64,000 bases of DNA from assembly GCA_034530795.1 (NCBI GenBank), contig JAVRCH010000059.1:847-64846 (forward strand), read 5' to 3'. This stretch comes from Nostoc sp. DedQUE12a (GTDB taxonomy: Bacteria > Cyanobacteriota > Cyanobacteriia > Cyanobacteriales > Nostocaceae). Position numbers and translations under genes: made by a program. Under the pieces are notes generated by a model, which worked only from the letters and a program-made list of their open reading frames with translations, did no database searches and had not been told where the DNA came from. This document shows positions 19,789-64,000 of this stretch, piece after piece (the stretch's first letter is position 1; every line of letters starts with the position of its first letter).

Positions 19789-20028
19789 TTACATTAACAA
19801 ACTTTCAATTTCTTCATCAGTAAAGCCAAATTGCCTAAAAATACGCAAAACATAAGCAGGAGACATTTCTTTTGCACCCATATCTATAGGAACGACTCTT
19901 CGTTGACCTTCAACTTCACGAGTATATAATCTATGGTCGCCTTTTCCTTCTCTATGAAATGTACAACCTGCTTGTTCTAAAAACTTAATTAACTCCTTGG
20001 GTTTCAGGGAAGGTATATTTTTAGGCAT
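19789..20028 (-). CDS. hicA: HicA-family toxin
   Basis: KPKELIKFLEQAGCTFHREGKGDHRLYTRE...VVPIDMGAKEMSPAYVLRIFRQFG matches the HicA (YcfA-like) pattern. It overlaps the upstream HicB gene by 8 nt. Confidence 0.75.
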   Translation of the reverse strand: MPKNIPSLKPKELIKFLEQAGCTFHREGKGDHRLYTREVEGQRRVVPIDMGAKEMSPAYVLRIFRQFGFTDEEIESLLM

Positions 20029-20287
20029 AAACCTTTCTTAATTCGTATATTTCTGTATCTTGTTCTTTCTCTTCAATATATAAAAATTCATGTAATTGCT
20101 CTATTGAAACAGGAGATTTATAAATATTAGTTTCAGACTCATAAACAATTTCAAAGGATTCAATTGCTTTTTTCAGCTTATTAATAGCATCTTCTTGAGT
20201 ATCCCCCTGGCCGACAATACCATTTTCTAAACATAAAGCAACCCAATAGCCAGAACTTTGTCTGAGTACAACTGTATAAAAATTCAT
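20021..20287 (-). CDS. hicB: HicB-family antitoxin
   Basis: MNFYTVVLRQSSGYWVALCLENGIVGQGDTQEDAINKLKKAIESF is a typical HicB N-terminal fold sequence. Confidence 0.7.
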   Translation of the reverse strand: MNFYTVVLRQSSGYWVALCLENGIVGQGDTQEDAINKLKKAIESFEIVYESETNIYKSPVSIEQLHEFLYIEEKEQDTEIYELRKVYA

Positions 20288-20371
20288 TTTTGTTACTTGT
20301 TGATGTTCTATAATTAGGAGAGCATTGCTTACTTTATTCTATTTTATAGGCTGAAAAAAAGAGGCGATCGC

Positions 20372-20470
20372 TTAATTAACTTGATTGATTGGTGCTTCTT
20401 GAGTTATTCCTTGTTTTACCAATCTATTTTCTATACATAAAGCAACCCAGTAACCCGCAATCTTTCGCAT
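20372..20470 (-). pseudogene. truncated HicB-like remnant (32 codons)
   Basis: MRKIAGYWVALCIENRLVKQGITQEAPINQVN* parallels SSGYWVALCLENGIVGQGDTQEDAINKL of the adjacent HicB. It is below the ORF-track threshold. Confidence 0.5.
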
Positions 20471-20518
20471 TAATTGACCTCTCCCCCAACCCCTCTCCGA
20501 AGCAATGAAATACTCTTT

Positions 20519-22216
20519 TTATCTAGGCCAAACTTTAATAGCTATATCAGCTAAATGTTCTGCACGCTTTTTAATTGCTTCTTCATTCCAAACATATATT
20601 TGTCTGAAATAATGATTTAATGACAAATTGCTAGTATTGAAATATACTAATTTTTCTGAAAAAGGTTTATTACCCATCTCAGAGTTATATCCTGTTAATG
20701 TGAGGTTACCTAACGTATGTAGCCATTTCTTCTGAACAGAAGCATGATTTCCTCCTAACATTGTTTTCCATTCTTTATTTAATGTCTGGGGCAGGATATG
20801 TTCAATAGTTAAACTATCTGACTTAACCTTTTCTTTAGTAAGAGATGACTCTAGGCTCTCTAAAAGAAGCTTCGCTCTATCAGTCAAACTTTTAGTGTAT
20901 ACACCCTTGGTCATAATCCCATCACGCAATGCATCATCATCAGGCCAAACTTTACTCTTATCATAGCCCTTCAATACTTGTTGTAATCCATCAACCAGAT
21001 CAGTAGGATTTACTTTCTGGACTTCAGAGTACAAGGCATTGAAAACTGATCCTAAACTTTTGGTAGAAATTCCAGCAAATAAACGACGTACAAAATATGA
21101 CTCTAGATAACGTAAAATTTCTTCAAACTTATCAAGCGAGAAGCTTTCCTGTTCATACTCATAATAAACATTGAGTAGGAATATCTGACAAGTCATAAAG
21201 TCAAGCCTTTTCAACCGCTGGAAGTAATGTCTTAATTTAGGTTCTGGTTCTTGTTCACAAAAATTAAGGCGTTGATAATACTTTGCAAACAGTATAAGAT
21301 TTTGTAGTTCAGACTTTACACCCATCCTTGAAGTATCAAAGCGTTTTTTGATATTTTTGTAAATTTCTTTTTGGTTAACTGCTTCGCCATCTTTACGTAA
21401 ATAAAACCAAAATGCGTTTGTTAATTCATCTGCATACTCTTTTTGGCTAACACTAGATTTAAAACTTTCTATGAAAGGTAACCATTCATTTTCATATACC
21501 TCTTCTCGTTCTTCATGAGGTAACCTCATAAATATATAGTTCCGAACTAAGTCTACCTGAGTTAGTTCTTCTCCCTTATTATTTAAACTTTCAAAAATAA
21601 GATATGGATTATCGTTTGCATCTGAAGTTATATTTACTACCACTAATTGTTCTAATATAATTTTTTTCAATCTTGTTAAATCAAGAGGTGTATCTTGATC
21701 GGGCACAGATTCTTTCAGCCGTTTATCAAAAAACTTATAAGCTTCATTTATTTCTCCTGTCTTCAATGGTGGATTTTTGCTTTTCCCTGTTTTACCTTCA
21801 ACTATAATTTTATATGCATCACGATCATTTTGAGTAGGTAGTACTTTAAAATAATCATCATTTTTCTGATATTTATTAATCAGATAAAATTCATATATCT
21901 GTTCAGACATTTGTTCGTCATATTTCTTGAGATGATTTCGTAATGCTGCTAGGAGAATACTAAGAGTGGTAAGACGTTGTTGCCCATCTATTACAATATA
22001 TGGAGTGATACCGTCAGCTGTTCCTAATTCTGCTTGTGTGACTATGGGACCAAGAAAATAAGAACCTTGTACTTCATCATTGTAGAGACTCATCAAATCT
22101 TCCCAAAGAGTCTTCCAATTTTTCTCTTTCCAAGAGTATGGTCGTTGAAACAGAGGTATTTGAAACTGTTTACCACCTTCTAGTAAGTTGCGAAGAGTCG
22201 TTTCTGAGGCTTTCAT
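20519..22216 (-). CDS. GmrSD-like type IV restriction endonuclease (DUF262 + DUF1524)
   Basis: The N-terminus has FQIPLFQRPYSWKEKNW and IDGQQRLTT (DUF262, ParB-like NTPase). The C-terminus has IEHILPQ...WLHTLGNLTLTGYNSEMGNKPF (DUF1524, His-Me finger). Confidence 0.8.
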   Translation of the reverse strand: MKASETTLRNLLEGGKQFQIPLFQRPYSWKEKNWKTLWEDLMSLYNDEVQGSYFLGPIVTQAELGTADGITPYIVIDGQQRLTTLSILLAALRNHLKKYDEQMSEQIYEFYLINKYQKNDDYFKVLPTQNDRDAYKIIVEGKTGKSKNPPLKTGEINEAYKFFDKRLKESVPDQDTPLDLTRLKKIILEQLVVVNITSDANDNPYLIFESLNNKGEELTQVDLVRNYIFMRLPHEEREEVYENEWLPFIESFKSSVSQKEYADELTNAFWFYLRKDGEAVNQKEIYKNIKKRFDTSRMGVKSELQNLILFAKYYQRLNFCEQEPEPKLRHYFQRLKRLDFMTCQIFLLNVYYEYEQESFSLDKFEEILRYLESYFVRRLFAGISTKSLGSVFNALYSEVQKVNPTDLVDGLQQVLKGYDKSKVWPDDDALRDGIMTKGVYTKSLTDRAKLLLESLESSLTKEKVKSDSLTIEHILPQTLNKEWKTMLGGNHASVQKKWLHTLGNLTLTGYNSEMGNKPFSEKLVYFNTSNLSLNHYFRQIYVWNEEAIKKRAEHLADIAIKVWPR

Positions 22217-48362: not shown

Positions 48363-49499
48363 ATGATAAGGAACGGTATCGGTATTCGCACGGCGCAAGT
48401 GCGTCAGGAACGGCTCATTGGTCAAATTCATGTTTATGATGGTGCGGGAAAAGGCAAGTCTCAGGCGGCTTTAGGGGTGGTTTTGCGCTCCATTGGGTTG
48501 GGAATTAATACACCTACTAATTCCAACCGGGTTTTACTACTGCGGTTTTTAAAGGGGCCTGAGCGTGATTATGATGAAGATGGGGCGATCGCAGCTCTAC
48601 AACGTGGTTTTCCCCATTTAATTGACCAGGTTCGGACTGGCAGAGCCGAATTTTTTGGCCCAGAAGAAATTACTGCTTTTGACAGAGATGAAGCCGCGCG
48701 GGGTTGGGATGTGGCCAAAGGTGCGATCGCCAGCGGTTTATATTCAGTTGTGGTTTTGGATGAAATTAACCCTGTACTGGATTTGGGTTTGCTACCAGTA
48801 GATGAAGTGGTACGCACATTAAAATCTAAACCCCAAGAGTTGGAAATCATTGCTACCGGACGCGCTGCACCACAAAAGTTGCTCGATATTGCAGATTTGC
48901 ACTCAGAAATGAAACCCCACCACCACCCAACTGCTAAAGCACTTTTACTTAATGGCATCGAAATTTATACTGGTGCTGGTAAAGGTAAATCTACGAGTGC
49001 TTTAGGTAAAGCCTTGCAGGCAATCGGTAGAGGAATTAATCACCCAGGCTCTACACGTGTATTAATTATGCAGTGGTTAAAAGGTGGTACTGGGTATACA
49101 GAAGATGCGGCGATCGCGGCTTTGCAGCAGTCATATCCAGAAGTAGTGGATCATCAACGTTGCGGTCGAGATGCAATTGTTTGGCGCAATTCCCGGCAAG
49201 AATTAGACTATGTAGAAGCCGAACGGGGTTGGGAAATTGCCAAAGTTGCGATCGCTTCTGGGTTGTATAAAACAATTATTCTCGATGAACTCAATCCCAC
49301 AGTTGACCTGGAACTACTACCCGTTGAACCCATTGTCCAAGCTTTGCTCCGCAAACCCCGCGACACTGAAATTATTATCACTGGTCGCTGTCAAAATCAA
49401 CCGAGTTACTTTGATTTGGCTAGCGTTCATTCAGAGGTTTACTGCCACAAACACTATGCAAATCAAGGCGTAGAACTCAAACGGGGAGTAGATTTTTAA
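48363..49499 (+). CDS. cob(I)yrinic acid a,c-diamide adenosyltransferase (CobO/BtuR type), tandem double-domain form
   Basis: There are two collinear halves, each with a P-loop (YDGAGKGKSQAALG; YTGAGKGKSTSALG), (R/Q)(F/W)LKG and (V/I)(V/I)LDE(I/L)NP. Confidence 0.8.
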   Translation: MIRNGIGIRTAQVRQERLIGQIHVYDGAGKGKSQAALGVVLRSIGLGINTPTNSNRVLLLRFLKGPERDYDEDGAIAALQRGFPHLIDQVRTGRAEFFGPEEITAFDRDEAARGWDVAKGAIASGLYSVVVLDEINPVLDLGLLPVDEVVRTLKSKPQELEIIATGRAAPQKLLDIADLHSEMKPHHHPTAKALLLNGIEIYTGAGKGKSTSALGKALQAIGRGINHPGSTRVLIMQWLKGGTGYTEDAAIAALQQSYPEVVDHQRCGRDAIVWRNSRQELDYVEAERGWEIAKVAIASGLYKTIILDELNPTVDLELLPVEPIVQALLRKPRDTEIIITGRCQNQPSYFDLASVHSEVYCHKHYANQGVELKRGVDF

Positions 49500-49643: not shown

Positions 49644-51989
49644 TCAATTTTCAATTAATACCTTTGCCACTTTTTGTAGCAAAGATGATTGACTATTATC
49701 ACTTATTTTTAAAATATTTTGAGTAAGCGTACTAAAATGTAAAGCTGTGATTGGATGTTCAATAAGTTCAGATGTAGAAATTTCTGTTTGAGAATATGTC
49801 TTTCCAATCAAGTGATAAACTCTAAATCCTTTTTTTAATTTACTTTCAAGACTTTTTCCAGGCGGAACATAATACTGAATAAAGCTTTCATTTTGCAAAT
49901 CAAAACATATCATATTTTGTATTCGCTTAATGGGTTTGATTTCGCCGTTGTAATATGATACCACAGGGAATAATCTACTACTATCTTCATCTCGAATTCC
50001 TCGATTAATTTTTAAGGTTCCCTTGTTTATGTCTTCAAGGATACCATTACGTCCAATTAAAGTTGGTGTATACAAGTCATTGGTATAGCAACTAATATAT
50101 AATTTTTCCGATTCATCTACAAAATATTGTTGATCGTCAATTAATTTTTCTTTATTGTTTTTCTGCTTTCTTAAAAATGGAAATTCTTTTTCTATTTGTT
50201 TGATGTCACGCATTACATTTTTGATATATATGCAACCCTCTTTATATAAGAACTCTACTGCTACTGCTTTAGCTTTCTTGTGTCGTGGGCTACGCACATA
50301 TATAGTAAAGAATTTTTTTTCAGTAAATGATTGAGCAGTAATTGGCAAGCCAAAGTCAGAATCTACAAAACTTAACCTCATCCAGTTTTTAATTCCCAAT
50401 TCAATCAAAATCTTCTGAAATTCTGGTGAAATATTTATCTTAAATTTATCGCAAAAACTTTGCCATTGTTCGCTATCTTCTTGACCTTTTAAATAGCACA
50501 AAATCGAACTATCTATGTCCAAAAATTTACCATCTGTAAAAGCCTGTGTATCCTGACGTAGGGTATCTTCATCATTTTTTTTATAACTTGTATAATTAAA
50601 AACACAGCAATCAGGTTCTATATTCTCAACTTTCTTAGATTCTTTTAATTTAATAGGTATAAATTGTTTTAGATTTATACCCTGCAAGCTAAAAAACTCT
50701 CCTGTATCCAAATAGTTAAACTTTCTCTTTAACTGTGAATAAAAATCAACTTTCTCTTTATTATCTATTTTTGTTGATGGATACCAGAAGCCATCATTTC
50801 CCTGGTAAGCCATTGAACCCACTTCTTGCTCCAAATCTCTATTGAAAACTAAATAATTTTTTCCCTTATCAAGGTTAATATCCGACCAAGGAACAACTTC
50901 AGTAATTTTCCAACAAGGCTCGTCTTCACTCTCAACTAATTGTTCATAGGTACTAATGGTTTTTCCTATATTATAAAATGTGAGTAAAGATACCCCTTGA
51001 TGTTTCAGAAAATTCTTCATAAATTGTTTGTCAGATTCAGTCAGGTCAATTCCAATATTGTTAATAATCTCTAATGATTCTACAGATTCTATGTTGTTGA
51101 TAAAAGCATTTTCTAAATAATTGTCAGCCTGAAAATGAAGAGGTTTAAATTTAATATTACACTCACTTAAAAAGCCCTCAAGCTTTGTCATGAGATTTTG
51201 ATAATGATAAACCTGAGTTTTTCTGAACTTCTCAAAATCTTGCTGATCTTTAGGAAATTCCATAAAATAAATAGAATTTTGGCGACGAGCATCGCGCTTA
51301 CGTTCAAAGTAGTAATTTTTCTTGTTATGGACTAACCAATCCTCGTCACTATCTATGTTGGTGTACTTATCTTGTGGTAAAAATCGTCTGCTTTGTCGAG
51401 ATAAGGTTAACGTTAAGACATTATAGGGATTGTATTTGATTAATAAACTCTGTCCCCAAACTAAAAGAGCATCTTTCGATTTGGTTAAATTTTTGGCATG
51501 GACTAAGAGTAATTCTTCAAAACCATTCACTGTCTCAACAGATAAGCTTTCATAAAGAAGATAAAATTTAAAAACTAAATTGAAAATTCTTTCTTGATTA
51601 TCTTTAAATAACCGTTTCCATCCAGAATGGCTTTTATTTGGAGATAAAAAGAATACATTGATTTTACCATTAACAGAGGAAAGAAAGTAATAAACATCTG
51701 AATATTTACGTTTGTCTCCATATCCCCAAAGCCGTTCTTGGATTTGTTTTTTAATGTATTTATGCCGTTCTTTATAAAAATTGGCTTGTGAATCTTCATC
51801 TTCAGGATACTCATCTTCAGGATACTCATCTTCAGGAACCTGATAGTTAAGAGGAAAATTCTCAATTCCCATATTCTTATTAAAGAGATACTGGAAAAGA
51901 CCTTCAGCAACCTCTTCTGGTTTTAGTAATATCTGTAACTGGTTTGTTCTTGATTTATCTGATAATACTTTAGTCATTTTATCTCTCAT
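49644..51989 (-). CDS. 781-aa protein of unknown function, partner of the helicase-nuclease
   Basis: Long open frame in very AT-rich DNA. The ATG at 51989 lies one nucleotide after the upstream TAA (taaTatg) and follows aggga. No motif was confidently recognised. An acidic EDEYPEDEYPEDED repeat lies near the N-terminus. Confidence 0.8.
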   Translation of the reverse strand: MRDKMTKVLSDKSRTNQLQILLKPEEVAEGLFQYLFNKNMGIENFPLNYQVPEDEYPEDEYPEDEDSQANFYKERHKYIKKQIQERLWGYGDKRKYSDVYYFLSSVNGKINVFFLSPNKSHSGWKRLFKDNQERIFNLVFKFYLLYESLSVETVNGFEELLLVHAKNLTKSKDALLVWGQSLLIKYNPYNVLTLTLSRQSRRFLPQDKYTNIDSDEDWLVHNKKNYYFERKRDARRQNSIYFMEFPKDQQDFEKFRKTQVYHYQNLMTKLEGFLSECNIKFKPLHFQADNYLENAFINNIESVESLEIINNIGIDLTESDKQFMKNFLKHQGVSLLTFYNIGKTISTYEQLVESEDEPCWKITEVVPWSDINLDKGKNYLVFNRDLEQEVGSMAYQGNDGFWYPSTKIDNKEKVDFYSQLKRKFNYLDTGEFFSLQGINLKQFIPIKLKESKKVENIEPDCCVFNYTSYKKNDEDTLRQDTQAFTDGKFLDIDSSILCYLKGQEDSEQWQSFCDKFKINISPEFQKILIELGIKNWMRLSFVDSDFGLPITAQSFTEKKFFTIYVRSPRHKKAKAVAVEFLYKEGCIYIKNVMRDIKQIEKEFPFLRKQKNNKEKLIDDQQYFVDESEKLYISCYTNDLYTPTLIGRNGILEDINKGTLKINRGIRDEDSSRLFPVVSYYNGEIKPIKRIQNMICFDLQNESFIQYYVPPGKSLESKLKKGFRVYHLIGKTYSQTEISTSELIEHPITALHFSTLTQNILKISDNSQSSLLQKVAKVLIEN

Positions 51990-51990
51990 A

Positions 51991-54900
51991 TTATTTTTCC
52001 CTTTGAAACAAAAAGTTTTTGAGAATATCAGATTCAACCGGAATATTATGGCGGTCAAAGTAAATTAAATTTCCAGAAAATAAATTTGGTGAGTGTTGCT
52101 GATTTTTTTCTTGTTTTGCTTGCAAGTTTAGAAGTAATCCTCTCACAGCTTTAAATTCTGCATAATCTGAAACAATAGCATCTAGCTTCTTTTGTGCTTT
52201 TTCTAGTGTCTTTTGTGAAAGGCGATTTCCTGAAGCTTGACTCCATGCTTTAACATCAATACAAAATAGCGTATTGTCTTTGATATAATACAAATCAAAA
52301 CGTTCATACAATTTATGATATTTTTTGAAATCAAGCAATGGCTCAAAACCATAGTTAGATTTTATAGCTTTCCAGTCTTTACCTTTAAAAAGTACATCTT
52401 TAATCCAGCGTTCCGCAAAATTTTCAGTCAGCGATGGATACAAAACATCGTAAAAGAAATGTGGGCGTGGAATATAGGTATTAAAAATTTCCGGTTGTGG
52501 AATCAACTCGTTGTACAATTTACAAATTAAATTAGTCGAAGGATCTGTCAAAGCAATTTCGTTACCTTCCAAGTCATAGCCTTGAGCATTTGTTTTGAGA
52601 TATTCAGGATATAATCGCTGCTGGTAATGATAAATTTTTTCCCCATTAATGCTATCGCTGACGATCTGAAACTGTTTACCTTCTTCCTCCACAGAAGCTA
52701 AATATGGTGTAAATCGAGTTTGTTCTGCGTTGTGATAAAATAATGAGTCAATAAAATCATCAGAAAATAGTTCTAACTCTTGTAACTTTTTCAGATATCT
52801 GTCTGGCTCTTTAAAAACAATTGGATCGCGTAAAGCATCCCACATTTTTGTAATAGCAAATGCTTTTTTATCTTGATGAAAATTTTCAATATCATTCAAC
52901 ATTTTTTCTCTAAACATTTGAAAATTTACAGAAGCATCAGTTTCATCATAAACATGATCGTCATAATCGTTAATTGCTCGTTTTTTTTCCTCCTCTTGAA
53001 CGTTTAAATAAACTTTGTGGTTGTTAACAGAGAATTTACGAATTTCATCAGGTTCTTTCTGCTCCAGGTATCTATAAAAATTCACTAAATTTTTTCTTGT
53101 TTCTTCATTAATGAAAATCTTTCCTACTTGGTCTGGGAAATCACGCCTTTCAGATCGGCCAATGGCTTGTAAAATTCCTTTACCTAATAAAATTTGATGT
53201 TGTTGCTCTCTAAACGCTCCAGCTTCCGGTTGACTTAGATATTTGTTGAAATCTTTGATTTCTAAATTAGAATCTCCTAAATTTACAATACTTTTCATTA
53301 AACCAAAATGATAAAGTGTTGTAGATTTTTCAGGTTCTTTTGATTTTTTCAATGATGATTTCATTACTGTATAGTAACTGTCCATCAGCAAAACTAAAGA
53401 GTCAAAGTCCTTTTCTTCTCCGTTGGGATTTTTGATGATGGGGTTCAAACCTTTTGAGGCTGATTGATAAGCTGAGATAAAGAAAATTTTTTGCCCTTCT
53501 TCTTCAACAAGCTCATCCAAATATGTTTTTTGAGTTGTTTTATCCAAGTAATTTTTATTAAAGGAGGCTTCATATAAAATTATTTTAATCAGAATATTAC
53601 TTTTGTATTCTTGATGATTTAGATTGACATAGTATATGCTTGGATGCTCTGAGGATTTTTCAATCTTAAAGTTATTATGATGAAGTTTTTCCCAAAATAT
53701 CATCAATTTTTTAATCCAGCTTAACGTTTGCGTAAAAGCAATCGTTTCTTGAATTGATTCATCTTCAAAAAGGTAAAATAAGAAACGAATAAAATTTTTT
53801 ATTTCTTGAATCTTGTAAACACTGAACCAAGCTCTATCATTTTTGCAATCGTTAATAAAATGTTTTAAAGTTTTATTTTCAAATTGTTCTGCAACTTCTT
53901 GAGTCTCGTTATTTGGAAACGATGATAAATTAGCGTTGAAAAAATTCACTGTAATTTGTCGCTTGGCATTACGCTGGCTTCTAATTTCTTCACAAAGCAA
54001 TATTTCTTCTTCAATCATTGCTTTAAAAGAACTTTGACCAGATTCATTACGTAGATTATCTTCCAAATAACGCATATCATAACTGGTACTTAAATCGCCA
54101 AAAATTCCTCCTGTTGCTGAAATAAGAAAAATCACATTACTATTATTGGTTAGCATAGAATTTATCTTTAATTCAGGTGAAGTCAATATAGCAGTACTCC
54201 CAATAGAGACTTCTCTCAGATCTTGAGCTATTAAGTTATTCTTGGGATTTTGATATCGAGAAATTTCTTTGATATTTATGATAGACTTATAGCTTTCATA
54301 GACATAGGTACGGTTTAAGTATTTGAGTAGTTGATTTGTTGATGAGCTTTCTTCACTTGCGTTTTGGACTCTAGTTATCTGTTTTGACCAAATATCTAAA
54401 GAACGAGATTGAGAATCCTCAGCATCCAAAACATTAGCCAGAAAATTTTTGATAGATTTAATTTCTCGTCGAACAGCCAAAATAGCATAAATTAATTCTG
54501 CTACAGACGTATTATCTGCAATTATTTCCTCAGTGATGTGAACATGACCACCAGAAGGTCTAGTTAAAAATAATCTTTTTAGAAGCTCGATGTTGTAGAT
54601 ATATAGGTTATTATATGAAAAAATGTTCATCAATTCATCACTGATTTTGTTGTAAAGCTGCTGAGGAATCAACAAACTTCTATTATTCTCAAATTTTGAA
54701 AAAACCCTAGCCAACATTTCAAAATTTAATACAATGGTACTTTCTTGATCATAATCATCGAGAATCCCAACAATTTCGTCCATTGATTTATCAAGACATT
54801 TTTTTATTGTTACTACCTGTTCTAAAAAATTGATAGAATTTCCTTCCTCAAATACTAGTCGTTGATATGTTGGGGCAAACTTTTGCAATTTTGGATCAAT

Positions 54901-55938
54901 ATCTTTGTTTTTATCAAAATATTCTTGAAACTCGGACAAAGCACCCCTATTTTTCTCAATAAAATTTAAAAATTCTCTGTTTTCATTATTTTGTGTAGAA
55001 AAAAGGATGGACAATTCCCTATTGATAGATGAAAGTGCATTATTGATTGCCAATTGTTCAGGTGAGATGATATCAATTTTTTTATCTAGCATAATTTGAT
55101 AGCCATCTTCCTGCTCATCCAATGCAAGGATAAATTTTGTAGAGGTATTTGTGTATTCAATAACGTATTTATCAAGCTTGTCTTCTTTCTTTCTCCATTT
55201 TTCGCCAATATGGATAAAGTATGGAATAGAAGTTTCAAACTTATCATAAGTAAGCATCAAAATTCCCGATTTTTCTTGCAAAAGATGAAGAGGGAAAAAT
55301 ATCTCCATCAACCTCAAACATTCAATTGGCCAAGTTTCTTGAGCCAACTGAGATTTAATGATAAATTCTAAAAAACTTTCAAATAACTTGTTGAGTTCTC
55401 TTCTTGCTTTTGTAATTTCAGAACTATTCAATTCTTCATCGCCAAAATCTACTATTGTAAAATATTCAAGACGATTAATAACATTTTTTATTTTGCTCAG
55501 ATTTTGTTTATTTTCTTGAACTTTTTCATGAGAATTGTATTTTGATATCAACTGCCAAAATTTTTGATTACTAATGATTGCAGATATCCATTTTGGGTAT
55601 ATTTTAATATATTCTTCAGTCGTCTTCATCTCTAATGAATTTAGTTTATAGACGGGAATATCAGGATATTGCCTAACAATTGAATTTGGAACACATAAAT
55701 GTTCTCTTAATGGAGCAACATATATACCGATGATTTTAGTATTGGGATGTTCTTTAATAGTTTTGCAAATTGCATGGAACAATTGGTGAGTCTTTCCTGA
55801 ACCTGTACCATAATTTATGAGTTTTAGTTGGGAACGGTTTTCTCGAAAGCTATCTTCAATTGTTGTAAGGTAGGAATTAAGGATTTCTGAACGAGCCGAT
55901 TCTAGCTGCCGACCAAGGGAATCTTTTCGCTTTTGCAT
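51991..55938 (-). CDS. 1315-aa SF2 helicase (DinG/XPD-like motif pattern) with a C-terminal PD-(D/E)xK-like nuclease motif
   Basis: Motif I GTGSGKT (aa 44-50; nt 55789-55809), motif II DEQED (aa 274-278), motif III SAT (aa 607-609), an SASKGLN motif V-like segment (aa 826-832) and motif VI QAIGRSERRDFPDQVGKIF (aa 924-942). The C-terminus reads FDLYYIKDNTLFCIDVKAW (D1215...D1228-x-K1230; nt 52249-52296). Confidence 0.85.
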   Translation of the reverse strand: MQKRKDSLGRQLESARSEILNSYLTTIEDSFRENRSQLKLINYGTGSGKTHQLFHAICKTIKEHPNTKIIGIYVAPLREHLCVPNSIVRQYPDIPVYKLNSLEMKTTEEYIKIYPKWISAIISNQKFWQLISKYNSHEKVQENKQNLSKIKNVINRLEYFTIVDFGDEELNSSEITKARRELNKLFESFLEFIIKSQLAQETWPIECLRLMEIFFPLHLLQEKSGILMLTYDKFETSIPYFIHIGEKWRKKEDKLDKYVIEYTNTSTKFILALDEQEDGYQIMLDKKIDIISPEQLAINNALSSINRELSILFSTQNNENREFLNFIEKNRGALSEFQEYFDKNKDIDPKLQKFAPTYQRLVFEEGNSINFLEQVVTIKKCLDKSMDEIVGILDDYDQESTIVLNFEMLARVFSKFENNRSLLIPQQLYNKISDELMNIFSYNNLYIYNIELLKRLFLTRPSGGHVHITEEIIADNTSVAELIYAILAVRREIKSIKNFLANVLDAEDSQSRSLDIWSKQITRVQNASEESSSTNQLLKYLNRTYVYESYKSIINIKEISRYQNPKNNLIAQDLREVSIGSTAILTSPELKINSMLTNNSNVIFLISATGGIFGDLSTSYDMRYLEDNLRNESGQSSFKAMIEEEILLCEEIRSQRNAKRQITVNFFNANLSSFPNNETQEVAEQFENKTLKHFINDCKNDRAWFSVYKIQEIKNFIRFLFYLFEDESIQETIAFTQTLSWIKKLMIFWEKLHHNNFKIEKSSEHPSIYYVNLNHQEYKSNILIKIILYEASFNKNYLDKTTQKTYLDELVEEEGQKIFFISAYQSASKGLNPIIKNPNGEEKDFDSLVLLMDSYYTVMKSSLKKSKEPEKSTTLYHFGLMKSIVNLGDSNLEIKDFNKYLSQPEAGAFREQQHQILLGKGILQAIGRSERRDFPDQVGKIFINEETRKNLVNFYRYLEQKEPDEIRKFSVNNHKVYLNVQEEEKKRAINDYDDHVYDETDASVNFQMFREKMLNDIENFHQDKKAFAITKMWDALRDPIVFKEPDRYLKKLQELELFSDDFIDSLFYHNAEQTRFTPYLASVEEEGKQFQIVSDSINGEKIYHYQQRLYPEYLKTNAQGYDLEGNEIALTDPSTNLICKLYNELIPQPEIFNTYIPRPHFFYDVLYPSLTENFAERWIKDVLFKGKDWKAIKSNYGFEPLLDFKKYHKLYERFDLYYIKDNTLFCIDVKAWSQASGNRLSQKTLEKAQKKLDAIVSDYAEFKAVRGLLLNLQAKQEKNQQHSPNLFSGNLIYFDRHNIPVESDILKNFLFQREK

Positions 55939-56149: not shown

Positions 56150-56323
56150 AAATTTCTTTTTGCCAAAATATAAACTTTTTCTGTATATAGAGCCTGTTTA
56201 AGGAAACAATATAAAAAATTTCCGTGTAATTCACCGTGATATTTAGAACTTTTCCGAATATCATTCACTAGCGCGACTCGACTCTATCGATAGCTGTACG
56301 CACTCTTAACTCATTCTTTGCTT

Positions 56324-59119
56324 ATGCTATACAAGCACCATCGACAAAAGCTGTTGAAATCGATCGCACTATTCTTAATTGGAACATTTCTGCAATTTTT
56401 GTTTTACATCCCAACACCAGTCTTATCCCAAAATTCCAATAACTGTAGCAATATTACAATTCCTCTGACACCTGAAGAACAAACTTACGCTCGTGCTGCT
56501 TGGCAGTATTTTGTGAAAAATTATCAGCCAGCAACGGGATTTACCAATTCTACTGGGGGTTATCCTTCCGGTACGCTTTGGGATATGGGGAATTACCTGA
56601 TGGCGTTGAATGCTGCACGCTGGTTGAATCTTACTGACCAAGCAGACTTTGATACTCGCCTGAATAAGTTTTTGACGACTCTTAGCAGCCTGAAGTTATT
56701 TGAGGATGCCTTACCTAATAAAGTCTATAACGCAGCTACCGGACAGATGGTTGATTATGGCAACAATCCCATTGAACGGGGTATTGGCTGGTCTGCTTTG
56801 GATGTCGGTAGAATCCTGGCTGCGTTTGATGTGATTCGCAGCTGTCATCCGCAATATAAGGATTGGCTCAAGGGCATTGTAGCAAAGTGGCAGGTAGGGC
56901 GATCGCTCAAAGACGAACAACTTTTTGGCGCTACTGTTCTGACTGACAACAAAACGTTATTGGTGCAAGAAGGACGACTCGGCTACGAAGAATACGCCGC
57001 TAGAGGTTATCAACTTTGGGGCTTCTCTGCACCGAAAGCTATTGCTTTTGAGCCGTTTAAGCTAGTGGAAATTAATGGCGTCCAAATTCCCGTTGATACC
57101 CGTGATTTTCAAAGCACTAACGCCAATAATTACGTTGTGAGTGAGTCTTATATTCTTGATGGTATTGAATTTGGTTTGCAAGGTCAGTTAGCTGATTTTG
57201 CTGCTAGAGTTTTGGATGTCCAAAAACGCCGTTACGATACTACAGGTCAGTTAACTGCGGTTACAGAAGACAATATTGACCAAGCACCCTATTTTCTCTA
57301 CAACACTGTCTACGCCAACGGTACAAACTGGGCAACAATTACCGACGCTAACCAGCCTTATCCCCAGTTTCGCAGCATCAGCACCAAAGCTGCTTTTGGT
57401 TGGCGCTATCTTTTTCCTGATAATGCCTACGCCCAAAAACTTTTTGATGCTGTTAAGGATCTCCGCAGTCCTGATGATGGTGGCTACTATGCTGGTATTT
57501 ATGAAGAATCAAAGCAACCCAATAAAGCTTTGACAGGTAATACTAATGGGCTAATTTTGGAGATTTTATACTACAAAGCTAGGGGAAATCGCCCTTTAAT
57601 TGCCTCTGGTACTGTGAGTGTGTCTACTGGTAAGCCCAGTGAGAATGCAACACCCTCAAATCAAGCGAATTCTACTGTTACGCCTCCTACCCCAACCCCT
57701 GCGGATACTTCTAAAATTACAGAAGTGGCTGTTGCACCGATTCCACCAGTGGGTAGTCCGCAACCATCATCTAATCTCAAATTAGAAAGACCACTATCGG
57801 TAATTGAAAAACGCTATGCAGAGGCGGCTTGGCGATACTTTCAAGCTAATTATCACTCCAAAAATGGCTTAGTTGACGATCGCAGCGATTTCAAAGGTGC
57901 AACTCTCTGGGGCTTAGGAGATTATCTGGCAGCCCTCCATGCAGCGCGATCGCTCGATATAATTAACCCCAAAGAATTTGACGGACGCACCCGACATTTA
58001 TTAGCAGCCTTGACAAAATTACCTTTATTTGCTGGTGAGTTACCGAGTCGGGGTTACGATACTAGAACGCTGCAATCAGTGGATTATGGTGGAAATCCGA
58101 TTCCAGAAGGAAATGGCTGGTCGGCTTTAGATTTGGGCAGGATGCTGGCGGCGCTTTATAACTTAAAAACCTGTCATCGAGAATACACGGCTGCGGTAGA
58201 TAAAATTGTGCTGGATTGGTCATACTTGCGTGTGGTACGGGAAGGTATTCTTTCGAGTGCTACTGTTAGCAAAGAAGAAGATGGGCGATATCTTACTCGC
58301 GTCAACCCTGAAACCCGCTTAGGTTATGAAGAATATGCCGCTCGTGCTTTTCAATTATGGGGGTTTAATGTTGAGGGTTCTGCTGTTGGTGGTGAATATC
58401 AAACTGCCTCAGTAGAGGGGGTGAAAGTACCAATTCAACGCCGCCGCACAGATACTAACTCCAAAAACCAATATACAGTTAGCAATCCGTTCTTACTCTA
58501 TGCTTTGGAATTTGGACTAGATCCACAAATGCGATCGCTTTTTGAGCCGATTTTCCAAGCGCAAGCCGAACGTTATCGTCGCACCGACACTCTCACAGCC
58601 TCAGCTACCACGCTAATCGATCGCAAGCCTTACACTGTCCACAGTACAATTACTGGGCAAGGCGATGCTTGGGTAGCTTTAGGAGATGACGGTCAACCCG
58701 TACCCAAAGGACGATTAGTAAGTACAGCAGTAGCTTTTGCTTATCATGCTTTGCTTCCAGAAAATAAGTATAGTCAAGAATTACTACAAGCAACAACTGA
58801 TTTATATAATCCATCGGCTGGATTTTATGAAGGCTTCTATGAAACCACGGGTAAAACGGCAGTTGGTTTCACTAGCAGCACCAACAGTATGATTTTGCAA
58901 TCCTTGTTGTACAAAGTGATGAATGAACAACCTCTAATTCGTCCGGCTACCACCATGAAGTCTCCTTGGTGGGTGGCAGTAAGTAAGGGAAATTCCGGGC
59001 GAGGTTTGCCCAACACTGCAATCCAACGAACCAAGTTAATTTCTGATGGTTCTGGAAGTTACTGGGCTTCAGCTAGCAAAAATACTCAACTAGTAACTGG
59101 TACAAAAGTCACAGAATAA
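56324..59119 (+). CDS. secreted protein with two tandem DUF3131-like domains
   Basis: N-terminal TM/signal segment. The internal duplication is visible directly: YARAAWQYFVKNY / YAEAAWRYFQANY; GNNPIERGIGWSALDVGRILAA / GGNPIPEGNGWSALDLGRMLAA; RLGYEEYAARGYQLWGF / RLGYEEYAARAFQLWGF. The family name is from recollection. Confidence 0.7.
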   Translation: MLYKHHRQKLLKSIALFLIGTFLQFLFYIPTPVLSQNSNNCSNITIPLTPEEQTYARAAWQYFVKNYQPATGFTNSTGGYPSGTLWDMGNYLMALNAARWLNLTDQADFDTRLNKFLTTLSSLKLFEDALPNKVYNAATGQMVDYGNNPIERGIGWSALDVGRILAAFDVIRSCHPQYKDWLKGIVAKWQVGRSLKDEQLFGATVLTDNKTLLVQEGRLGYEEYAARGYQLWGFSAPKAIAFEPFKLVEINGVQIPVDTRDFQSTNANNYVVSESYILDGIEFGLQGQLADFAARVLDVQKRRYDTTGQLTAVTEDNIDQAPYFLYNTVYANGTNWATITDANQPYPQFRSISTKAAFGWRYLFPDNAYAQKLFDAVKDLRSPDDGGYYAGIYEESKQPNKALTGNTNGLILEILYYKARGNRPLIASGTVSVSTGKPSENATPSNQANSTVTPPTPTPADTSKITEVAVAPIPPVGSPQPSSNLKLERPLSVIEKRYAEAAWRYFQANYHSKNGLVDDRSDFKGATLWGLGDYLAALHAARSLDIINPKEFDGRTRHLLAALTKLPLFAGELPSRGYDTRTLQSVDYGGNPIPEGNGWSALDLGRMLAALYNLKTCHREYTAAVDKIVLDWSYLRVVREGILSSATVSKEEDGRYLTRVNPETRLGYEEYAARAFQLWGFNVEGSAVGGEYQTASVEGVKVPIQRRRTDTNSKNQYTVSNPFLLYALEFGLDPQMRSLFEPIFQAQAERYRRTDTLTASATTLIDRKPYTVHSTITGQGDAWVALGDDGQPVPKGRLVSTAVAFAYHALLPENKYSQELLQATTDLYNPSAGFYEGFYETTGKTAVGFTSSTNSMILQSLLYKVMNEQPLIRPATTMKSPWWVAVSKGNSGRGLPNTAIQRTKLISDGSGSYWASASKNTQLVTGTKVTE

Positions 59120-61891: not shown

Positions 61892-62617
61892 ATGACAAAC
61901 TCGAAAACAGCCATGAATACTCATTTAGACTGTAACAACTTTGGTCAGCGAACTGTATTAACAATTTATGCTCATGCTGATGATGAAGTTCTACCTGCTG
62001 CTGGTACTCTCAGCTTGATGTCTAAGGCAGGGTGGAATGTTCGTTGCTTAATTTTGACTGATGGTAGTCTTTCTAGTTCATCTATTAAGGGTACACGTCA
62101 TCAAGAAGCAGATGCAGCTGGTAAAATTATCGGTGCAAATTACGAATTTTATGCGCTTGAGGAGTGTAACTTTTCGACACAAGCAGTAATTAAAGTTACT
62201 GAAGAAGCTATTGTGCGTTCGCATCCAGATTTGATTATTACTCACGCACCACAACCTGAAAAATATGGCCATAGAGATCATGAAGTGTGTGCGATCGCAG
62301 TTTCTAATGTTGCTACCCGCAAAAACATACCTTTGTGGTATTCAGCACCGCCTGTTTTTTTGCGTGGTTTTGAACCAAATTTTTTTGTCGATATAACTTC
62401 TGTAATTGAAGAAAAAGTAGCTGCTATTGGTTGTTATGAATCAGAAGCAAATAAAGCATTTATGCAACTGGATTCCATACTTGTTTTGTCTCGATTTTGG
62501 GCACGAGAATTAGGTCAAAAAGATGGATATTTTGAAGCTTTTGAAATTTCTCGGCAATGGGTTGACGCTAGCTTTTTCAGTGCGATCGCTAATAGTAATA
62601 AACAAGTAATAAAATAG
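61892..62617 (+). CDS. PIG-L/LmbE-family deacetylase
   Basis: LTIYAHADDEVL (AHxDDE motif) and HRDH zinc-ligand motif. 241 aa. Confidence 0.8.
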   Translation: MTNSKTAMNTHLDCNNFGQRTVLTIYAHADDEVLPAAGTLSLMSKAGWNVRCLILTDGSLSSSSIKGTRHQEADAAGKIIGANYEFYALEECNFSTQAVIKVTEEAIVRSHPDLIITHAPQPEKYGHRDHEVCAIAVSNVATRKNIPLWYSAPPVFLRGFEPNFFVDITSVIEEKVAAIGCYESEANKAFMQLDSILVLSRFWARELGQKDGYFEAFEISRQWVDASFFSAIANSNKQVIK

Positions 62618-62850
62618 AATAGGGTTTTTTCAGCTAATCTGCTGAAATATTTCACTATAGTTATTGGTCATTGGACAAATGATTAACGATCAAAACATAC
62701 CTCGTGAATCACATTGCAATATTTATATATCTTAATAATATTTAAATTTATAACTTTATAAACAAAAATATTTTTATAGCTATTGCAGTTTGTATTAATT
62801 TGATGCCAGAATAATAACATATTTAAAAAAAATAGTTGGAGAATTCATCC

Positions 62851-63180
62851 ATGAATATGAGCGTAACTGTACTAGAATTATCTGGAATCTTAGATGGTAT
62901 TAGGGGTAATGAATTGCGTCGTGAAGTTAGTAATGTTGTGGACACTGGAACAAATATTTTATTGTTAGATTTAAAAAATGTAAAGTTTATTGATAGTTCT
63001 GGTTTAGGTGCTTTAGTATCAGCAATGCAAATAGTACGAAAAAATGATGGGCAACTTTTTATCTGTTCGATAAATGACCAAGTTAAGATGTTATTTCAAC
63101 TGACTAAAATGGATAGGATTTTCCAAACTTTTGCTGACCAAGAGGAATTCAATCGTCAAGTACTAGCAACGCAAAATTGA
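62851..63180 (+). CDS. STAS-domain anti-sigma-factor antagonist
   Basis: LLLDLKNVKFIDSSGLGALV contains the conserved phosphorylatable Ser context. Start moved to the ATG at 62851. Confidence 0.8.
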   Translation: MNMSVTVLELSGILDGIRGNELRREVSNVVDTGTNILLLDLKNVKFIDSSGLGALVSAMQIVRKNDGQLFICSINDQVKMLFQLTKMDRIFQTFADQEEFNRQVLATQN

Positions 63181-63342
63181 ATATGCTAATCTAGTTTACC
63201 TTTGCAATTTACTTGCTTCCATAAACGAGTATCTAAAAACGCAATTAATCGCATCTATAAAGAACATAAAATCAGATTCTTCGGGTTCATGGCAAGTTTT
63301 TCATGCAATTTAATAGAGATTATATATCTAAATTTAAGGTTA

Positions 63343-64000
63343 CTAGCCAAAGTTAACCTTTACTAAAGATAAATCATCATTAAGATTATCTTGAGCATTG
63401 AAACCGAGAATATTTGTTAATAACTGATTGAGGTTACAGATATCTGTTTGGCTATATTTCATTAGTAAGTTAATGAAAGCATCAAGACCTAAAATCTTGC
63501 CATCTGGCTGATTAATTTCATAAGCTCCATCGCTAAATATATATAAATTACTGTTTTCTTTGACTTCAAAAACAGCATTTTGAAATTCAATATCAGGTAA
63601 AAAGCCAATTGGTAAATCTAAAGAATTTAGCTGTTGAATTTCGATATTTTTTGTAGAGTTACTAGATAAAAGTAAAGCAGGTGGATGTCCAGCGTTGGCG
63701 TAAATAAGTTGGCGTTTGAGGCGGTGATAAACTCCATACCAAATTGTGAAGTATTTATCACCGTGTTTCCTCATTTGGAAGGCGTGATTGAGGGCTTTTA
63801 GGACTTCACTGGGTTGAGAAAAGTTGGTGTTTGGTAGAGATTGCGATCGCAATACATTCAGCACCGATACAGACAACAGTGCTGAACCAACTCCATGTCC
63901 TGATACATCTAATAAATAAATCGCTAAGCGATCGTCATCGAGCCAATTATGGCCAAAGCAATCACCGCCTAGCTGTGCTGAAGGAATAAACAAATTTTCT
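63343..64000 (-). CDS. PP2C/SpoIIE-family serine phosphatase, C-terminal domain; N-terminus outside the window
   Basis: GGDCFG, LLDVSGHGVGSALLS, ANAGHPP and SDGAYE are SpoIIE/PP2C motifs. The frame is open to the window edge. Confidence 0.8.
   Translation of the reverse strand, partial: ENLFIPSAQLGGDCFGHNWLDDDRLAIYLLDVSGHGVGSALLSVSVLNVLRSQSLPNTNFSQPSEVLKALNHAFQMRKHGDKYFTIWYGVYHRLKRQLIYANAGHPPALLLSSNSTKNIEIQQLNSLDLPIGFLPDIEFQNAVFEVKENSNLYIFSDGAYEINQPDGKILGLDAFINLLMKYSQTDICNLNQLLTNILGFNAQDNLNDDLSLVKVNFG

Follow-up and report, generated by a model that had tools for sequence, protein, structure and literature searches.

Two adjacent genes on the minus strand of a 64,000-nucleotide stretch of Nostoc sp. 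DedQUE12a DNA (assembly GCA_034530795.1, contig JAVRCH010000059.1; the whole stretch is called the window below and is numbered from its first letter) very probably encode a defence system of the ApsAB type, which combines an Argonaute-like protein with a helicase-nuclease. ApsAB is an anti-plasmid system of Escherichia coli sequence type ST38 (Zongo et al., Nat Commun 2024, PMC11096173). The two genes of the window, both including their stop codons, are:

49644-51989, minus strand: apsB-like gene for a 781-residue Argonaute-like protein, the putative sensor or targeting module, assigned from its open reading frame (ORF), the structural neighbours of its AlphaFold2 (AF2) model and homology to ApsB.
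51991-55938, minus strand: apsA/ddmD-like gene for a 1315-residue protein with a predicted superfamily 2 (SF2) helicase and a C-terminal PD-(D/E)xK nuclease, the putative effector, assigned from its translation, weak domain matches, Foldseek matches to DdmD and the published listing of an Aulosira orthologue.

The ORF at 49644-51989, which a preliminary description had proposed from the sequence, is confirmed on the minus strand and yields 781 residues when counted from the ATG at 51989. Its longest possible start, a TTG at 52058, overlaps the upstream gene. The NCBI annotation of the strain (RM338_09790, our P0001, 100% identical) begins at the second ATG, at 51977, and has 777 residues; we favour the 781-residue version because the homologues start with MRDK, MKDK or MKNK. 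The ATG at 51989 lies 1 nt past the TAA of the 1315-residue ORF. Together the genes form a block of 6.3 kb with a guanine plus cytosine (GC) content of 0.308, set between flanks of 0.452 and 0.417.

Sequence family and homology to ApsB

The preliminary description found no recognisable domain in the 781-residue protein, and this holds for the profile libraries: Pfam, PADLOC, NCBIfam and PHROGs gave 0 matches at E <= 1, and the Pfam profiles Piwi (PF02171), PAZ and ArgoMid were among those without a match at this threshold. With 0 Pfam families at E <= 1, a canonical prokaryotic Argonaute (pAgo) in the Pfam sense was rejected. The 1315-residue partner had only sub-threshold matches in these libraries, to DEAD/ResIII and to NERD/YraN. 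PADLOC also returned no match for ten remote homologues of the 781-residue protein; the release used (2023) is older than the description of ApsAB. Sequence searches of the PDB were made with both window proteins, with P0286 and P0290, and with the profiles A1, A2 and A3. The 781-residue protein had no match, and neither the single sequences nor the profiles recovered DdmE or DdmD at E <= 10.

Homologues are nevertheless numerous. A word-indexed search returned 197 for the 781-residue protein and 140 for the partner. In either set the 120 best matches share at least 55% identity, come almost entirely from cyanobacteria, are often located on common contigs and have no Pfam domains. A profile search of 1.84 billion cluster representatives yielded 95 proteins, comprising the core clade, fragments, and about 35 full-length proteins of 660-750 residues (E 1e-19 to 5e-4). 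Thirty of these remote 660-750-residue proteins make up alignment A2, hereafter the ApsB branch, and 44 homologues that are 58-87% identical to the window protein make up alignment A1. The two alignments match in hhalign with a probability of 100% and E 3.8e-62 over 641 columns.

The E. coli ApsB sequence available to us comprised its first 443 residues, taken from Supplementary Data 7 of PMC11096173. It is 70% identical to one member of A2 (P0331) and 24-39% identical to the others, and BLASTP aligns it with the window protein at E 1e-7 (22% identity over 295 residues). At the level of sequence comparison, the homology of the cyanobacterial clade to ApsB is unambiguous. The 781-residue protein thus has the homology, the Y-x3-K...QG...K motif, the C-terminal Asn (...KVLIEN781) and the gene context by which an ApsB is recognised.

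ApsAB-like systems have been reported in some cyanobacteria (PMC11096173). Supplementary Data 7 and 8 of that paper list a pair from Aulosira sp. FACHB-615 as 'apsA-like/ApsB-like', and these proteins (P0002 and P0122) are 86% and 87% identical to those of the window. Proteins of Aliterella, Nostoc sp. B(2019), Calothrix and Microcoleus also appear in the supplement as ApsB/ApsA homologues, and the published PSI-BLAST search retrieved the Aulosira partner orthologue as an ApsA homologue with a query cover of 0.86 and 15.4% identity (PMC11096173). Membership of the family has therefore been published before, solely as a supplementary-table listing without analysis of the clade. Within the collection of papers searched, follow-up work on ApsAB was limited to the original paper.

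A predicted long-Argonaute fold

Alignment A1 served as input for an AF2 model of the 781-residue protein. The model has a mean predicted local distance difference test score (pLDDT) of 68.7 and a predicted template modelling score (pTM) of 0.64, with 177 residues below pLDDT 50. Its six top Foldseek matches in the PDB are all DdmE, the catalytically dead Argonaute of the Vibrio and Lactobacillus DdmDE systems, which lacks a DEDX tetrad and does not cleave (published DdmDE work). The matched chains are 9ezy_B (E 1.3e-8, TM 0.43-0.49), 8u3k_E, 9bgk_E and 8u0j_A from V. cholerae and 9iw3_A and 9ixm_B from L. casei, with E 1.3e-8 to 1e-6, target-normalised template modelling (TM) scores of 0.39-0.49 and alignments of 740-880 columns. 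About 40 structures of the PIWI clade and pAgos follow (MIWI, EfPiwi, Siwi, RsAgo, TtAgo, AaAgo, CbAgo, hAgo2), over some 750-950 columns; similarity to PIWI and Argonaute folds lies at E 2e-5 to 1e-3 (RsAgo about 2e-4). All 50 matches listed belong to the Argonaute family, with no unrelated family among them; 27 have E <= 0.001 and the alignments are full-length. Sequence identity to these structures is 8-10% and global TM scores are below 0.5. The PDB searches brought up no ApsB or ApsA structures, so Foldseek could report only the nearest solved relative.

Within the moderate confidence of the model, the overall fold resembles that of DdmE (N, L1, a small PAZ analogue, L2, MID and PIWI). 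The PIWI/Argonaute-like identity first suggested on faint sequence resemblances is thereby strengthened, with full-length Argonautes led by DdmE in the structure search and an invariant MID-type motif in the alignment. A missing RNase H-like fold or MID pocket, or a confident match to another family, had been named as signs against that idea; the Foldseek list is Argonaute throughout. The protein is probably a highly divergent, non-cutting, Argonaute-like protein, as judged from its predicted structure.

The putative guide-binding pocket and the PIWI-like region

Conservation was assessed in a joint alignment of 74 sequences that combines the cyanobacterial clade with the ApsB branch. Nine residues are invariant in 74/74 sequences (D415, Y417, K421, Q436, K534, P642, P675, T756 and K773); D625 is kept in 73/74 (the single exception has Glu), while G437 and the terminal Asn recur in 70/74 and 69/74, respectively. 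The features of the protein that concern us here are:

50727-50741, minus strand: first half of the MID-type motif, Y417-S-Q-L-K421, after the invariant D415; 74/74 sequences; equivalent to ApsB Y409/K413.
50679-50684, minus strand: Q436-G437 of the MID-type motif; Q in 74/74 and G in 70/74; equivalent to ApsB Q431-G.
50388-50390, minus strand: K534 of the MID-type motif, the last Lys of Y-K-Q-K; 74/74; equivalent to ApsB K489.
50430-50672, minus strand: clade-specific, mostly helical insertion (residues ~440-520) between Q436 and K534; unaligned with the ApsB branch in hhalign and present in all cyanobacterial homologues.
49647-50357, minus strand: C-terminal PIWI-like region (residues 545-781) with a predicted beta1-beta2-beta3-helix-beta4 core, from DSSP on the model and the full-length Foldseek alignments.
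49644-49697, minus strand: conserved C-terminal tail N765-SQSSLLQKVAKVLIEN781 and stop; K773 in 74/74, terminal N in 69/74.

The protein has an Argonaute MID-type 5'-end-binding motif (Y417-x3-K421...Q436-G437...K534), accompanied by K773 and the conserved C-terminus, which corrects the preliminary description, where no nucleotide-binding motif had been seen. The motif belongs to a MID-like region of residues ~300-544. Its counterpart in ApsB is Y409-x3-K413...Q431-G...K489 with a C-terminal Asn (PMC11096173), and since Y417, K421, Q436 and K534 are invariant, G437 is found in 70/74 and the terminal Asn in 69/74, the ApsB signature is reproduced exactly. ApsAB activity is lost with K413A in ApsB and with K221A or E533A in ApsA, and ApsB ends at N743, a residue proposed to reach the guide-binding pocket (PMC11096173). 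In the window protein, the tail N765...K773...E780-N781 is conserved as strongly as the MID motif itself.

Canonical Argonautes have a Q-to-K gap of about 25-30 residues. Q436 and K534 are 98 residues apart, versus 58 residues in ApsB (PMC11096173), with predicted helices in the insertion at 471-484, 492-502 and 506-515 (pLDDT 73-88).

The PIWI-like region of the model has strands at 557-566, 574-583 and 586-593, a helix at 596-602 and a further strand at 620-625, and in this prediction three strands, a helix and a strand thus follow one another as they should in an RNase H/PIWI core. Three beta-rich segments singled out earlier coincide with the first three predicted core strands (FFTIYVRSP at 560-568, AVAVEFLY at 575-582 and CIYIKNV at 586-592). 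In RNase H/PIWI folds the first catalytic Asp sits at the end of beta1. Here this place is held by R566, which is invariant in the cyanobacterial clade and Arg in 22/30 sequences of the ApsB branch. D625, at the predicted end of beta4 (window 50115-50117), is the only acidic residue of the C-terminal domain conserved across both branches; it may be structural, metal- or guide-binding, or a relic of an RNase H active site. D697, H726 and H751 of the same domain are invariant in the cyanobacterial clade. On account of R566 and the solitary D625, mapped from predicted secondary structure, we consider the protein probably catalytically dead like DdmE, which agrees with an earlier guess of inactivity.

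The N-terminal half includes a variable acidic loop, a beta-rich region and an S-R-T-N motif. The latter (residues 13-16, window 51942-51953) reads A-R-T-N in ApsB, with the Arg in 65/74 and the Asn in 69/74 sequences across both branches. A 'DdmE-like' protein in the supplement of PMC11096173 starts likewise, with CSRVNEQL.

The helicase-nuclease partner

The helicase and nuclease motifs of the 1315-residue partner are invariant or near-invariant among 34 homologues:

55789-55809, minus strand: helicase motif I (Walker A), GTGSGKT, residues 44-50; GFGKS in ApsA.
55108-55119, minus strand: helicase motif II, DEQE, residues 274-277, with D274, E275 and E277 invariant; DELH in ApsA.
54112-54120, minus strand: helicase motif III, SAT, residues 607-609, invariant; SAT 823-825 in ApsA.
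53143-53169, minus strand: helicase motif VI, QAIGRSERR, residues 924-932, with Q924, G927, R928, E930, R931 and R932 invariant; QAVGRVER in ApsA.
52249-52305, minus strand: predicted PD-(D/E)xK nuclease core, E1212-x2-D1215...D1228-V-K1230, all four residues invariant; spacing as in ApsA D1420...D1433-V-K1435.

ApsA is itself a helicase/PD-(D/E)xK nuclease with the motifs GFGKS, DELH, SAT, QAVGRVER and D1420...D1433-V-K1435 (PMC11096173). The nuclease pattern also agrees with E1082-x2-D1085...D1100-x-K1102 of DdmD, and the weak NERD/YraN matches fall on the predicted nuclease core.

The partner was modelled over residues 116-1315, leaving the Walker A segment outside the model (pLDDT 66.3, pTM 0.40). 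Only three Foldseek matches have E <= 0.001, and all are DdmD: 9ix4_B (6e-10) and 9ix4_A (2.8e-8) of L. casei and 8u0u_A (3e-7) of V. cholerae. The fourth match follows at E 0.06. Global TM scores to DdmD are 0.15-0.18, low values that we attribute to the poorly predicted domain arrangement (pTM 0.40). As Foldseek retrieves DdmE for the 781-residue protein and DdmD for its partner, each gene independently points to the matching component of DdmDE. The earlier guess that the Argonaute-like protein relies on the partner's fused nuclease gains support from these exclusive matches to DdmD helicase-nucleases.

Gene pairing, distribution and mobility

The preliminary description had proposed looking at the phyletic spread of the homologues and at their neighbours, and a scan of one genome per GTDB species gave 52 loci. 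The partner, located by tblastn with the helicase-nuclease of the window, lies at least in part upstream and on the same strand in 51 of them; the exception is at a contig end. An intact helicase-nuclease, or one interrupted by nothing but a contig end, occurs in 46/52 loci, where it abuts the Argonaute-like gene or overlaps it slightly. One locus (L052) has a gap of 477 nt between the genes, and two (L022, L048) have a truncated helicase-nuclease gene. Three independently retrieved contigs share an identical 1-nt junction in differing neighbourhoods, one of which includes an integrase, a HicAB pair, an AAA_13 ATPase and a serine recombinase.

Hosts are mostly Nostocales, Microcoleus and other Oscillatoriales, Pleurocapsales, Chroococcales, Pseudanabaena and Prochloron. 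Pairs that are intact and share 53-60% identity with those of Nostoc also occur in metagenome-assembled genomes (MAGs) of Calditrichia (L002/L035), Caldilinea aerophila/Caldilineaceae (L042, L053) and Thiotrichaceae (L047). These few non-cyanobacterial loci indicate horizontal transfer, with mis-binning of MAGs a possible source of such placements. The L002 pair has a phage-type integrase, a HicAB toxin-antitoxin, an AAA_13 ATPase and a serine recombinase as neighbours. Because of the drop in GC and the varied neighbourhoods with mobile genes, we regard the pair as behaving like a mobile defence island.

Two loci, L050 (1621-6383, Microcoleaceae UBA11344) and L051 (2196-7218, chromosome of Microcoleus sp. 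GLPB), retain residues 1-85 of the ApsA-like and 371-781 of the ApsB-like protein, with ~3.5 kb of unrelated ORFs (159, 112 and 291 residues) in between. They are decayed remnants, and the system is inactivated by replacement in some lineages.

Assignment of the system and alternative interpretations

We think it likely that 55938-51991 and 51989-49644 constitute a horizontally acquired two-gene ApsAB-like defence operon in the ApsB-associated branch of the ApsAB/DdmDE family. The analysis shows directly that the predicted folds of the two proteins resemble DdmE and DdmD, that the sequence is homologous to ApsB, that the motifs of the MID region, the helicase and the nuclease are conserved, and that the genes are strictly paired in a block of island-like composition.

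Several points weigh against this assignment. Identity to E. coli ApsB is about 16-22% by sequence comparison, and neither protein is recognised by any profile library, PADLOC 2023 included. Since the hidden Markov model (HMM) profiles of both branches miss DdmE and DdmD in the PDB at E <= 10, the link to DdmDE depends on predicted folds of moderate confidence; the segment with Y417 and K421 falls within residues 387-432, predicted at pLDDT < 50, and the partner model has a pTM of 0.40 and very low global TM scores. An hhalign comparison of the partner family with an ApsA fragment (residues 1-399) aligned Walker A only, at E 0.06. Finally, ApsB has been described as lacking an RNase H/PIWI fold and as structurally unlike DdmE (root-mean-square deviation, RMSD, 30.6 A; PMC11096173), a view that sits awkwardly beside the Foldseek ranking of our model.

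That ranking could be taken further, to make the 781-residue protein a true DdmE orthologue (the 'long-C' pAgo of DdmDE) and not an ApsB-like protein, given that DdmE provides its six top matches and DdmD the partner's only significant ones. A1 and A2 also align collinearly with the N-terminal fragment of a 'DdmE-like' protein in the PMC11096173 supplement, but weakly and not significantly (E 6e-4 and a probability of 28% in one match). However, Foldseek was confined to the nearest solved relative in a PDB where no ApsB or ApsA structure was found, DdmE is missed there at E <= 10 by the clade profile and the ApsB-branch profile alike, and the homology to ApsB is unambiguous. In the published classification, too, the cyanobacterial pairs are grouped with ApsA/ApsB, the RMSD to ApsB being 7.5 A for a cyanobacterial model versus 30-35 A for DdmE-like ones (PMC11096173). 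We regard orthology to DdmE as improbable. A more radical departure, that the Foldseek matches are artefacts and that the protein is a non-Argonaute orphan serving as adaptor or regulator of a stand-alone helicase-nuclease, could appeal to the mean pLDDT of 68.7, the 177 residues below 50, TM scores below 0.5, identities of 8-10% and the missing Piwi, PAZ and MID matches in Pfam. Against it stand the exclusively Argonaute-family Foldseek list (50 matches, 27 at E <= 0.001, full-length) and the Y-x3-K...Q...K residues, which with the conserved C-terminus make up the classical MID 5'-end pocket signature and are invariant over 74 sequences. Mutation of the equivalent Lys inactivates ApsAB (PMC11096173), and the partner independently matches the Argonaute-associated DdmD; this is the explanation to which we give the least credence.

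If the protein is an Argonaute, it might still be an active one that cuts the target itself, leaving the helicase-nuclease only to make guides or clear products. The retention of D625 in 73/74 sequences across the branches and the invariance of D697, H726 and H751 in the cyanobacterial clade would suit such an enzyme, but R566 occupies the end of beta1, no second or third acidic residue is conserved family-wide in the mapping from predicted secondary structure, and the nearest structural relatives are DdmE proteins that lack the DEDX tetrad and do not cleave. Cleavage by the 781-residue protein seems to us very unlikely. A different placement, possible but not favoured here, is that the cyanobacterial clade represents a third branch of dead Argonautes coupled to helicase-nucleases, bridging ApsB and DdmE, an idea suggested by a predicted fold nearest to DdmE in a protein whose sequence is ApsB-like. 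If so, and in contrast to what was described in 2024, ApsB-type proteins would have kept the whole long-Argonaute architecture with a PIWI domain in degenerate form, and ApsAB and DdmDE would be one lineage. In polyploid, plasmid-rich filamentous cyanobacteria, such a system would have to distinguish self from non-self by some unusual rule. The clade-specific helical insertion in the MID motif, of about 70-100 residues, could by analogy with the PIWI insertion of DdmE be a new docking surface for the helicase-nuclease.

A possible mechanism

Returning to the ApsAB-like assignment, we lean towards a mechanism that follows DdmDE in detail, where analogy supplies the kind of guide, the way the partner is recruited, the direction in which it translocates and the action against plasmids. 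The 781-residue protein, with its long-Argonaute-type architecture and probably no catalytic tetrad, would be a guide-bearing sensor. Its MID pocket (Y417, K421, Q436 and K534, closed by K773 and the C-terminal tail) would hold a short guide by its 5' end, and this guide, most likely DNA with a 5'-phosphate, would pair with invading plasmid DNA. The protein would then recruit and load the 1315-residue SF2 helicase/PD-(D/E)xK nuclease, which would move along the displaced strand and degrade the plasmid. In such a division of labour the Argonaute-like protein, labelled a possible effector in the preliminary description, would by analogy with DdmE and ApsB be the targeting module or sensor, and the helicase-nuclease the effector.

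In DdmDE the guide is 5'-phosphorylated DNA of ~11-14 nt; DdmD, a dimer in an autoinhibited state, is loaded on the non-target strand and moves 5' to 3', and both ATPase and nuclease activity are needed (published DdmDE work). The genetic requirements of ApsAB equal those of DdmDE, and destabilisation of plasmids in vivo has been shown for three E. coli systems (PMC11096173). DdmE was stated to lack a MID motif (PMC11096173), and later DdmE structures revealed a MID pocket of Y363, Q376 and K405 with C-terminal contacts. Near its C-terminus, K674 and E678 contact the Mg2+ that holds the 5'-phosphate of the guide (published DdmE structure work).

Two 'hypothetical proteins' missed by profile libraries thus become a recognisable defence system. 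Current HMM sets of defence finders overlook a whole cyanobacterial branch of the ApsAB/DdmDE type that is present in 52 species-representative genomes. An anti-plasmid Argonaute system in Nostoc, Microcoleus and their relatives could account for the poor upkeep of replicative vectors in some strains, and the apsAB-like pair would be a sensible knockout target in cyanobacterial genetic engineering. Our analysis also makes a modest addition, at the level of fold, to the case for an Argonaute architecture common to ApsB-like proteins and DdmE, which was doubted in the original ApsAB paper.

Strain-specific indels and surrounding features

The acidic N-terminal loop contains a repeat already noticed in the preliminary description, where it was given as a 15-bp direct repeat near 51790-51835 encoding an acidic 5-residue unit. 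Tandem Repeats Finder (TRF) shows it to be real:

51796-51837, minus strand: 15-bp tandem repeat, 2.8 copies, 100% matches, encoding EDEYPEDEYPEDED in an acidic loop of the N-terminal region that is predicted to be disordered.

Across the 44 aligned homologues this loop is hypervariable in length and composition, its pLDDT is 43-45, and the additional EDEYP unit is found only in this strain; we therefore see in the repeat a recent slippage duplication, not a functional signature. A second strain-specific indel is an eight-residue insertion, IPIKLKES (residues 443-450, window 50640-50663), directly after Q436-G437, which this strain alone has among the 15 homologues displayed.

Both neighbours of the gene pair are on the opposite strand, with 378 codons to the left (48363-49499) and 933 codons to the right (56318-59119). 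The left one, of 378 residues, has two similar halves, each with a G-A-G-K-G-K-S/T P-loop and 'LDE(I/L)NP', and by its sequence looks like an internally duplicated protein of the ATP:corrinoid adenosyltransferase type. The window contains no tRNA genes, and a search for direct or inverted repeats on either side of the island gave none that convincingly mark its borders. A promoter scan gave a promoter-like count not above that of shuffled sequence, and terminators were not found. Two further stretches of low GC, 20001-22000 (0.32) and 62001-64000 (0.34), stand out from the window mean of 0.40 and may be additional acquired segments.

Comparison with known systems

In function alone, the type I CRISPR Cascade-Cas3 system offers an analogy, one drawn by the DdmDE authors themselves: a surveillance module carrying a guide opens a D/R-loop, and a helicase-nuclease is recruited to the strand that is displaced. 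The proteins are unrelated, and the Nostoc system has neither a CRISPR array nor adaptive memory.

Closer in composition is pPIWI-RE, described by Burroughs, Iyer and Aravind in 2013, in which a divergent PIWI-like protein is reportedly encoded beside a DinG-type helicase and a nuclease of the restriction-endonuclease fold. The Nostoc locus likewise has a divergent PIWI-like protein encoded beside helicase and nuclease functions. The operons of pPIWI-RE have three separate genes and dedicated Pfam models. We rejected this identity for the Nostoc pair, which has no pPIWI_RE match in Pfam at E <= 1 and consists of two genes, with helicase and nuclease fused.

Long-B pAgos that work with a nuclease (RsAgo; EcBPAN, PMC13535254) resemble the predicted system in having an inactive long Argonaute with a Y-K-Q-K MID pocket and in leaving cleavage to the associated nuclease. 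Unlike the Nostoc protein, they match Pfam Piwi and have PAZ/PAZ*, and their partners are small nucleases and not a 1300-residue helicase-nuclease.

DdmDE (PDB 9ezy, 8u3k, 9bgk, 8u0j, 9iw3, 9ixm, 9ix4, 8u0u) provides the best structural neighbours of both window proteins and has the same E-x2-D...D-x-K nuclease pattern. Its logic, in which a dead Argonaute uses a short DNA guide with a 5'-phosphate to sense DNA and recruits an autoinhibited SF2 helicase-nuclease, is the one we have borrowed above. It differs in having no HMM-detectable sequence similarity to the cyanobacterial pair (PDB, E <= 10), and DdmE, of ~690 residues, has a four-helix DdmD-interacting insertion in PIWI, whereas the helical insertion here is within the MID motif. 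The Foldseek ranking points to a single long-Argonaute-type architecture for ApsB-like proteins and DdmE.

ApsAB differs in several respects. The helicase-nuclease has 1315 residues here and 1569 in ApsA, whose N-terminal extension of ~210 residues is absent; the Q-to-last-K gap is 98 here and 58 in ApsB, with the clade-specific helical insertion filling it; and the hosts are cyanobacteria in place of Enterobacterales. In common are a two-gene operon in which the gene for the helicase/PD-(D/E)xK nuclease is directly followed by that for the Argonaute-like protein, detectable homology to ApsB with Y-x3-K...QG...K and a C-terminal Asn, the helicase motifs G-x-GK-[ST], DE-x-[HE], SAT and QA-x-GR-x-ER, and the nuclease spacing D-x12-D-V-K. 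As the family, near-identical orthologues included, is already in a published supplementary table, the Nostoc pair does not represent a new kind of system but a cyanobacterial version of the ApsAB/DdmDE systems of plasmid elimination that have been published.

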